Below are positions 57,652-59,773 of a stretch of DNA of 64,000 bases, piece after piece (position 1 is the stretch's first letter; each line of letters opens with the position of its first letter). Both the position numbers and the translations under genes were made by a program. The notes below the pieces were generated by a model. It had not been told where the DNA came from and ran no database searches. It worked only from the letters and a program-made list of their open reading frames with translations. Source of the DNA: an uncultured virus (IMG/VR IMGVR_UViG_3300021399_000142). Taxonomy: Duplodnaviria; Heunggongvirae; Uroviricota; Caudoviricetes. Location of the stretch: the IMG/VR virus record IMGVR_UViG_3300021399_000142; one strand, 5' to 3'.

Positions 57652-58917
57652 TTAGTTTCCAGATTGTGTTTCAGTTTTACCACTTTCACCTGGTGTTTCA
57701 GAATTAGTTGACTGAACTGCTGTAAAAGTAGGTGTATCAGTTGCAGGTTTTGTTGTATCACAATCCATGCACTCATCTTCTTCACCGCTAATACTAAGAA
57801 TCTGAATATCGCACATTGTCTTCTTATCACATCTTGTGATAGTATAACCAGGGAATGCATCCATAGTGAAATTGAATGTACTTGGGTCACCAGAAGCCGC
57901 CATAGTAAATGTGAAACCAGACTGAACCTTTACTTTAGGGAAAGTAATGTTAGCAGCAACGTCCTTACCTGTTGCTTCATCACGGAATAATGTTTGTGCT
58001 TCAACGTAGAAGTATCCACCGAAGTCTTCAGGTCCAATAGTAATTGTCTGAACACTATTTGTCATAGCAAGATAGAAATCAACGATAACTGTCTTACCGA
58101 TTGCTGATGCAGGAACCTTAAGAGTTGCAGGAGCATTAGCAGTAACTGTAATAGCTTCTGCAATGTCATCTACCTCTAAAAAGTCCTCAGCTCTGCCAGC
58201 AGAGCCAATAACAGTTGCATACATAGGAATGCAATCGCAAATTAAAAAGCTTGTAGCATTATCGAGACCTGTTTCTTCTTTAAGGTCATTTAATTCAATT
58301 TCAATACCACCTTTAGTAGCGTCGCCAGTGATAGTACCAACAGTCTTTTCAAGAGTAACGTGTACACGTGCACTCTCACCAACAGCATGGTTAATTAAAC
58401 CAGCGCCAGAAAGAACTGCAAGACCCATAGGAGACATAAGAGCGTCTTCTACAGTAAAAGTCATTGTCTTCTCACCTTCCCAAGCGAGCAAACGAGCATA
58501 ACCTCTACCACCCTGTGCATAAACAGTTGTAGATGCCTGTTCAAAGTTAGAAGTTCTAGCTGTATCAATCATAAATACAGGCTGATACTTCTTGAAAACT
58601 TTGTTACCAACCTTCTGGTTGTTAGCTGCTGCTTTGAAGGTTACATCGCAAATTTCTCTTCATAATATTTAATTAATATTATGGACTATCTCTTATAATT
58701 ACTCTAGGTAATTATATACCCATTTCGATTTACATACCAATAGTAAACCTACATAATCTATTAAGATTATTAGTCTCTACATCGCGAGGTGTCGTTAACG
58801 CCCCATGACTCGGGATTCTCACTTTAAGTGCATTCCCCGATAGCCACTCTTATTAAATGACCCCAGTGGTTGCTGGATAGGGTATATTAGTGCGAGATTA
58901 TTCACACCAAATTTCAT
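57652..58917 (-). CDS. Major tail tube protein, split by a group I intron (exon 1 58917-58904, exon 2 58660-57652; 340 aa spliced)
   Basis: AAGGAGG RBS + ATG 58917. Splicing gives MKFGVREICDVTFKAA...MIDTA, in frame with ORF 57652-58572 (YAQGGRG, FTFTMAASGDPSTFNFTMDAFP); synteny. Confidence 0.85.
58661..58903 (-). ncRNA. ORF-less group I self-splicing intron (243 nt, IA-like)
   Basis: 5' exon ends in U paired to G in P1 (GGUGU|GA with UCGCACU). Terminal G. R element GUAGAGACUA (58771-58780), S element AAGAGAUAGUCC (58683-58694), P3 AUAUACCC/GGGUAUAU, P8 and P9 hairpins. Removal restores the frame. Confidence 0.92.
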
Positions 58918-58943
58918 ATTTAATTTTCCTCCTTAAATTTTTC

Positions 58944-59741
58944 TTAATTAAAAAATTTTTGAAATTTATTTCTCTTTCTTAATAAAAATAATTCAGGATT
59001 ATTTTTATACATAAAAGAGTAAAGTTTTAAAGAATCTTTTTTTCCAAAACGAATTGTTCTTGAAGAAGCATCATAACTGCCACCTTCTACCTTAGCTTTT
59101 TCTTTTAAGATTCTTAATAACTCGTCTAGAAATTTTTTACTACCACAACAAAAACTTGTATTTATTCGATTATTTTTTATTAAACAAACACATCCATCTC
59201 CATCAAAATACCCTCTAATAAAATCAGATAAATACTTTTCGGGAATAATTGTAGTAGGAAAAGTTAAAGTCAAACTTTTTTGTTCGGAACCACCTAAATT
59301 AATTAAATCATCATAAATGACCTTACAACAAAAATTAATTCTTGATGCTTGCCTATCTACATAATCTTGAATAGGGCCTTCATACTTTAATTCTTCAGCA
59401 AATTTTTTTATGATATATTTATCTTTATTTTGTACTGTAATATCAAACATCTTCCCGCCATAAATACATCCATCTGCATACCAGAATCCTAACATATAAG
59501 CCATATTAGGTGTCCAAGTTTTAAAATAATCTTGATTTATATGCCACTTTCTACCGTTTTGGCTCTGAATTTGACTTTTTTCTATTTTAGATATTTTTTT
59601 TATTCTTTTTCCATTATGATAACAAAAAGAATATATTTGATTTTTACTGTATTGAGAACCAAAAAACTCAACCCATTCTGGCAAGGTTTTACTCTCACTC
59701 TGAGATAAGAGAATCTCCTTGTGTTCCGGTGTTATTGGCAT
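58944..59741 (-). mobile_element. Free-standing LAGLIDADG homing endonuclease gene
   Basis: Two motifs, AYMLGFWYADGCI and FIRGYFDGDGCV; AAGGAGG RBS before ATG 59741. Confidence 0.88.
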
Positions 59742-59773
59742 AGCACACTTCCTCCTTAAAATTTTGCAAAATA

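Follow-up and report, generated by a model that had tools for sequence, protein, structure and literature searches.

In the genome of the gut phage analysed here, the start of the tail-tube gene is interrupted by a group I intron that has no open reading frame (ORF), and a free-standing gene for a LAGLIDADG endonuclease lies just upstream. The reading that we favour, with a probability of about 0.8, is collaborative homing: the nuclease would cut the intronless site, and its gene and the intron would be copied together, the intron protecting its carrier. The upstream nuclease is likely to spread itself and the intron into phages that lack both. This reading was part of the original prediction, which was made from the DNA alone, and it is supported by the co-occurrence of the two parts, by an empty allele that lacks both of them, by nuclease copies embedded in the intron and by the symmetry of the insertion site. 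In a mixed infection, the enzyme would cut the empty tube-gene start of another phage. With exon 2 and the upstream gene providing homology, repair from the carrier would then transfer the nuclease gene, a new start region and the intron together. The intron would break the target site and so shield the carrier, and splicing would remove it from the late RNA. The nuclease gene of one host lineage has probably moved into the P3.2 loop of the intron, giving a conventional one-piece mobile intron. Collaborative homing and introns in tail genes have already been published; what is new is that members of the same nuclease family lie upstream of the intron, inside its P3.2 loop, or beside an unrelated intron, all at one site. 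The DNA is a stretch of 64,000 nt from an uncultured virus of the class Caudoviricetes, which is called the window hereafter; its features are listed in Table 1.

Table 1 Features at the start of the tail-tube gene, in window coordinates.
Feature	Coordinates	Strand	Remarks
Upstream gene, 245 aa	59774..60511	-	phrog_4051, unknown function; adjoins the tube gene directly in empty alleles
Ribosome-binding segment before the nuclease gene	59749..59765	-	serves the tube gene in the empty allele
Cassette, 1092 nt	58657..59748	-	nuclease gene, new start region and intron; replaced by 23 nt in the empty allele of the X1 and X8 contigs
Free-standing two-motif LAGLIDADG endonuclease gene, 265 aa	58944..59741	-	PF14528, phrog_4645
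Second ribosome-binding segment	58926..58942	-	used by the tube gene in the window genome
Tube gene start codon	58917-58915	-
Tube gene exon 1, 14 nt	58917-58904	-
Group I intron, ORF-less, 243 nt	58903-58661	-	terminal G 58661
Intron guide sequence	58893-58887	-
P3	58885-58881/58720-58716	-
P3.1	58876-58863	-
P3.2 hairpin	58842..58862	-	site of the embedded nuclease gene in relatives
P4	58840-58836/58814-58810	-
P5 and P6/P6a			also drawn in the intron
P7	58777-58771/58688-58683	-
P7.1	58769-58754	-
P7.2	58749-58727	-
P8	58715-58695	-
P9	58682-58662	-
Tube gene exon 2, 335 codons plus 1 nt	57652..58660	-

The tail-tube gene and its intron

The interrupted gene had been named as the tail tube gene, and this identification was borne out by a match to phrog_2729 (virion structural protein), by annotated relatives and by fold matches. 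GenBank relatives are found in large Enterococcus, Lactococcus and Bacillus phages, and several of them are annotated as tail tube or major tail protein. The predicted model of the protein is weak (pLDDT 59, pTM 0.40); the 11 matches listed at E < 0.001 in a fold search with this model are tail tubes or phage neck/tail assemblies. A sequence search of solved structures matched tail tube chains by profile, but weakly (E 0.17). Furthermore, a gene of 3107 aa, located 1.9 kb downstream of the tube gene, can be taken for the tape measure by its size and position.

The 243-nt stretch is a group I intron: its length, its position 14 nt after the start and its core pairings, all part of the original prediction, were confirmed by the restoration of the reading frame and by covariation in 33 copies. 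The joined exons give a 340-aa frame with a single terminal stop and the N-terminus MKFGVREICDV. Intronless relatives have the same or a closely similar tube start, and the site is uninterrupted in 18 of 20 related loci, the remaining two being copies of the window phage. The last 7 nt of exon 1 form the 5' strand of P1, and the final base is the U of the U-G pair at the splice site. The minus strand of the intron folds better than 200 of 200 shuffled sequences (z -4.1).

Helices P1, P3, P3.1, P3.2, P4, P5, P6, P6a, P7, P7.1, P7.2, P8, P9 and P10 can be drawn in the window intron. Covariation was followed in 33 ORF-less copies, which are that of the window and those of 32 of the other 42 clusters. 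In this set, 95.9% of the cells are paired, compared with 78.6% in shuffles and 37-42% in slid controls, over which the structure has an advantage because it was drawn from one aligned sequence. Changes on both sides were found in 44 of the 70 pairs. P3, P4 and P7 are 100% paired, P7 being nearly invariant, and P3, P4, P6, P8 and P9 covary. The U-G pair at the 5' splice site is present in all 33 copies, and two pairs of P1 show a double change; P10, formed with the 3' exon, is 80.6% paired, with a double change in 3 of its 4 pairs. Changes in the exons are tracked by P1 and P10. All 49 introns listed end in G. P3.1, P3.2, P7.1 and P7.2 are all present and covary, while P2 is absent from the drawn structure; with P7.1 and P7.2 between P7 and P3, and with P3.1 and P3.2, the intron may resemble the IA2 introns of phages.

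A group I scan with Infernal had been proposed in the original prediction. A weak match of RF00028 to the intron was obtained in a local scan (16.4 bits, E 0.15), which is below the gathering score of 50, and at the gathering level Rfam gave nothing in the 64-kb window. The introns of the relatives score 21-28 bits with RF00028, a model described as biased against phage variants (PMC11878797). A model made from the 33 copies has the intron itself as its sole match in the window, which it matches by construction. Introns of the same fold are found in other phage genes (L433, L434, L501, L509, L453, L469, L427, L414); several of them carry an ORF after P6 instead, and the model of the window family scores the best four introns of other genes at 104-115 bits.

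Translation of the unspliced RNA would end after 32 aa, and no ribosome-binding motif precedes the next in-frame ATG (58572), so that synthesis of the tube protein should depend on the predicted splicing of the intron. The N-terminal residues of the tube protein are invariant in 45 homologues. No spliced junction of the window phage was seen in 8 RNA-library runs, whose contigs cover it so thinly and patchily that the missing junction is no evidence against splicing.

The nuclease gene, the empty allele and the distribution of both parts

The nuclease has an N-terminal helical region of about 65 aa, followed by the two LAGLIDADG helices with their acidic catalytic residues in the typical fold; the putative catalytic residues D90 and D182 are intact. 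Its predicted model (pLDDT 87.8) matches the structures of I-Tsp061I, other LAGLIDADG proteins, intein endonucleases and maturases. Together with the matches to PF14528 (LAGLIDADG_3) and phrog_4645, these structures bear out the family that had been assigned to it. Of 44 intact copies, 41 have the aspartate of motif 1 and 42 have that of motif 2, and dN/dS is 0.07-0.16 in 10 close pairs. The gene lies just upstream of the tube start, as had been claimed, with 26 nt between its stop and that start. The two ribosome-binding segments had been described as near-duplicates, and in the window they are identical at 16 of 17 nt; as a conserved feature of the family this did not hold, since an exact shared run of at least 12 nt is present in only 4 of 39 clusters. 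A family-wide target duplication was rejected on the same count. Many relatives read TAG as glutamine (table 15; L028, L032, L034, L035, L037 and others), and there the nuclease gene uses the genetic code of its host phage.

An empty allele, in a strain that is otherwise identical, was found in contigs of runs X1 and X8, which come from two studies. These contigs have zero mismatches to the window at 58468-58656 and from 59749 onward, while the 1092 nt between are replaced by 23 nt, and the nuclease gene and the intron are both missing. A contig of run X7 has the same loose end. The 23-nt replacement encodes a tube start whose junction codons are unlike those of the spliced form. Because the nuclease gene is missing too and the junction codons differ, the joint is an allele, and a splice product was rejected. 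Compared with this allele, the nuclease gene took over the ribosome-binding segment of the tube gene, which uses a second one. Near-identical hosts of unlike state are also seen in the pairs L039/L061 and L034/L116. A terminator-like hairpin (59796-59778, minus strand) lies where the upstream gene ends, immediately ahead of the nuclease start; since empty alleles have a similar sequence, this hairpin does not belong to the cassette. A promoter scan gave a chance-level result (12 vs 13.8 +/- 3.5). In another phage (L129:470 and 1601), two tandem paralogues of the tube gene both have an empty site.

The intron and the nuclease gene occur together. A pattern made of the intron end and exon 2 found 26 viral loci, 20 with the window-type intron at the same site and 6 by chance; all 20 have the nuclease gene, 16 upstream of the intron and 4 inside it. 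A pattern of the intron core found at least 120 loci; among the matches listed, 14 are in the tube gene and all 14 have the nuclease gene, these being largely the same contigs as the 20. The pattern of the empty site also found at least 120 loci, 40 of which had 300-nt flanks only, enough to show the C-terminus of the nuclease. Among the matches listed, 103 lie in tube genes, with a nuclease remnant at one of them and an intact nuclease gene at none.

The intron, empty-site and nuclease-centred scans, pooled, gave 104 loci with both genes, which form 56 clusters at 95% identity. The intron is present in 51 clusters and absent from 5. In 43 clusters, the nuclease gene is upstream of the window-type intron (36 intact, 2 cut by the contig end, 5 decayed or frameshifted); in 6 it is inside the P3.2 loop, and in 2 it is upstream of an unrelated intron one base away. 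In the 5 others, it precedes an uninterrupted site (2 intact, 3 decayed). None of the pooled loci has a nuclease of at least 45% identity elsewhere than at the tube start. Two loci, L267 and L282, were excluded from these counts because exon 2 is missing; L267 shows the start of the intron. At L282:1109-1440, a third type of intron comes after the nuclease gene and exon 1 of the tube gene, and the downstream exon resembles that of L453, which is another gene, and not the tube gene, pointing to a chimeric assembly or a rearrangement.

The two intact nuclease genes before an uninterrupted site, L256 and L264, are not predicted by simple self-protection and run against it. The junction of L264 is exactly of the spliced type, and either a precise loss or assembly from RNA could account for this locus. 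Exon 2 of L256 is a variant one, and L256 cannot be the splice product of L255. Furthermore, the two introns of L201 are precisely missing from L289, a relative with 94-98% identity, a difference compatible with spliced RNA as well as with a precise loss.

The tube gene is a hotspot for introns. Further inserts are located near exon-2 residues 50, 53, 61, 64 and 260, and many of them match RF00028. They were found in about 17 of the 51 clusters with the first intron (L025, L039, L043, L271, L022, L029, L041, L032, L176, L180, L190, L269, L280, L334, L337, L291 and L199) and, by the same test, in none of 59 empty-site clusters, L140 being a probable exception.

Target site, history and alternative explanations

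Homing enzymes that are encoded within an intron cleave the DNA at the insertion site or close to it. The embedded copies (6 clusters) are in the same intron at the same site, and the region upstream of them is intact (L039 compared with the empty L061), which ties the target of the family to the insertion site. The empty site forms a pseudo-palindrome of 22 bp, with the insertion point at its centre. Over 59 empty alleles, the symmetry at this point has a mean of 12.9/22, compared with 5.8 +/- 1.6 over 260 centres; it is on average the highest of the 260 and the best centre in 21 of the 59 alleles, which were gathered by a pattern at this same site, so that the conservation may be inflated. 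A second peak of equal height, 190 nt downstream, coincides with another intron site. The nuclease is predicted to cleave a site of about 22 bp centred on the insertion point, and the intron would shield its carrier from the carrier's own enzyme.

The unrelated intron (L199:3310-3538, L284, L291:495-722) is found in a Gly-Ser allele, where its insertion point is displaced upstream by one base from that of the intron in the window; it scores 78-106 bits with RF00028 and has the same nuclease family upstream. Both enzymes paired with it differ at V128, D129 and Q131, which are otherwise at least 90% conserved. These changes match a swap of partner and, being one event, weakly suggest it.

On a host tree of 86 rows, from which 29 of 115 candidates had been dropped for short cover, presence and absence require 20 changes, and at least 13 of them are forced by well-supported branches. 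Distances between nucleases correlate with those of the host gene (rho 0.59) more than with those of the intron core (rho 0.21), so that much of the inheritance appears vertical; joint horizontal transfer left no clear trace in these correlations. The embedded copies are limited to one host clade (support 100), and their introns form one clade in the intron tree (90/94). Two independent invasions of the intron, which the 59-row nuclease tree would suggest, were set aside as unsupported, as a single embedded clade is not rejected (p-AU 0.56) and the intron tree gives one clade. In four outgroup introns from other genes, P3.2 has no ORF, and a single gain is therefore the shortest account; it is parsimony that favours the direction from beside the intron to inside it. 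The nuclease trees give no polarity: with 59 rows, the embedded copies are nested among free-standing ones, in two places, while with 30 rows they are basal and a clade of all free-standing copies is compatible (p-AU 0.39). In L025, L039 and L043, the frame of the embedded nuclease continues into the intron core, through P4 and beyond, before its stop. In the host clade with the embedded nuclease (L025, L031, L039, L043, L271, L061, L067, L132), the intergenic stretch is longer and includes, some 40-50 nt ahead of the tube start, a conserved motif that is possibly a promoter element and might disfavour insertion upstream.

Hardly any credence can be given to the view that the 243-nt stretch is no intron and that the tube protein begins at the internal ATG. 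The Rfam score is below threshold and the ORF caller gives a 306-aa frame from 58572, but covariation across the 33 copies, the exact restoration of the reading frame, the invariant N-terminal residues of the homologues and the lack of a ribosome-binding motif before this ATG all argue against it. The nuclease could also cut elsewhere, at the end of the upstream gene or in the intergenic region, with the intron hitchhiking by co-conversion. Such cutting of a neighbouring gene is described as frequent for free-standing homing enzymes (PMC6083498), and the intact nuclease genes of L256 and L264, which precede intronless sites, would agree with it. We consider it quite unlikely, as the upstream gene varies far more (mean distance 0.62) than the start of the tube gene (0.35), the members of the family inside the intron leave the upstream region undisturbed, and hitchhiking alone would not yield an intron in 51 of 56 clusters. 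It is somewhat less improbable, although still doubtful, that the main or an additional role of the protein is that of a maturase, which would help splicing in trans and without which the intron could not persist. The intron was never found without an ORF of the nuclease family (20 of 20 loci; 14 of 14 among the matches listed), the frames of L022, L029 and L041 are open despite the loss of one or both catalytic aspartates, and dN/dS in the lineage of L029, L041 and L289 is 0.2-0.31; the 23S intron of Thermotoga has a known LAGLIDADG maturase (PMC3984707). A helper role is conceivable, given that no copy of the intron was found by itself and that frames stay open in decayed copies, in a sample of few independent lineages. 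Against it, nearly all intact copies keep the catalytic residues, the same nuclease family partners an unrelated intron (L199, L291), and related ORF-less introns of the same fold are found in other genes with no such protein nearby.

The most serious competitor concerns the origin of the two arrangements: the nuclease could have been encoded in the intron first and have escaped upstream later. This order is supported by the 30-row tree, with its basal embedded copies and a free-standing clade that is not rejected, and by the intron tree, where the embedded group is near the base too. It is opposed by the 59-row tree, which nests the embedded copies among free-standing ones, and by the restriction of the embedded introns to one clade in one host clade. 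Moreover, with P3.2 empty in the outgroup, one gain suffices, while an escape would require three steps, namely gain, relocation and clean loss. We therefore hold the escape to be the less likely order, though a tenable one. The opposite path, from a free-standing partner to fusion in P3.2, has by itself a little better than an even chance. A fuller reading takes together the free-standing partner of an ORF-less intron, the swap, with matching changes in the DNA-contact residues of the nuclease, and the fusion, and adds a role of the free-standing protein as a maturase in trans, whereby intron and nuclease would make an obligate two-piece element needed for tail assembly; it is speculative and we rate it as improbable. 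If it were true, one family at one phage site would record the whole making of a mobile intron.

Comparison with known systems

Collaborative homing has been described for the group I intron in psbA of cyanophage S-PM2 and the free-standing F-CphI (PMC6083498, PMC3984707, PMC2988022). Both systems have a group I intron that is ORF-less, with an adjacent gene for a free-standing endonuclease, and in both the intron is placed in such a way that it would break the target, a predicted one here. The differences, as far as the published accounts describe S-PM2, are several. F-CphI is of the Endo VII type, whereas the enzyme here has two LAGLIDADG motifs; the host gene here is a structural gene, unlike psbA, with the site 14 nt after its start; the nuclease gene is upstream, on the former ribosome-binding site of the host gene; and the same nuclease family is also found inside the intron. 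In phage T4, the free-standing nuclease mobE promotes homing of the nrdB intron in trans (PMC2988022). The predicted mobilisation of a neighbouring intron by a free-standing nuclease is similar here, but MobE is an HNH enzyme and the nrdB intron has, in that account, a defunct nuclease of its own, while the present intron is ORF-less.

The tail-tube gene orf142 of Staphylococcus phage Twort has group I introns (PMC11878797), and as in Twort, several introns per gene are found in relatives of the window phage. The phage lineage and the site are unrelated to those of Twort, and the adjacent LAGLIDADG partner has no counterpart among the features mentioned for orf142 in that source. There are also reports of group I introns in capsid genes of gut phages (PMC7886860), and the decay of LAGLIDADG genes has been treated in general (PMC13619312). 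In the literature searched, no published description of this nuclease family was found. The Rfam model misses introns of this kind, and ORF callers shorten the tube proteins by 34 residues.

Phages T3 and phiI are reportedly the example used by Bonocora and Shub in 2009. These authors proposed that a pre-adapted free-standing nuclease enters an ORF-less intron and so gives rise to a mobile intron (PMC3984707, PMC2988022). This proposed origin of mobile introns from free-standing nucleases rests on very few phage examples. The present family shares with their model that, at a single site, the nucleases of one family are free-standing in some cases and embedded in the intron in others, and it would carry collaborative homing over to a virion gene and to enzymes of the LAGLIDADG type. 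It goes beyond the case that is described in these sources, since at a single locus the site is found empty, with an ORF-less intron beside its neighbouring nuclease, with the two fused, with a decayed nuclease and with a second intron, all of them states that can be cloned for assay.
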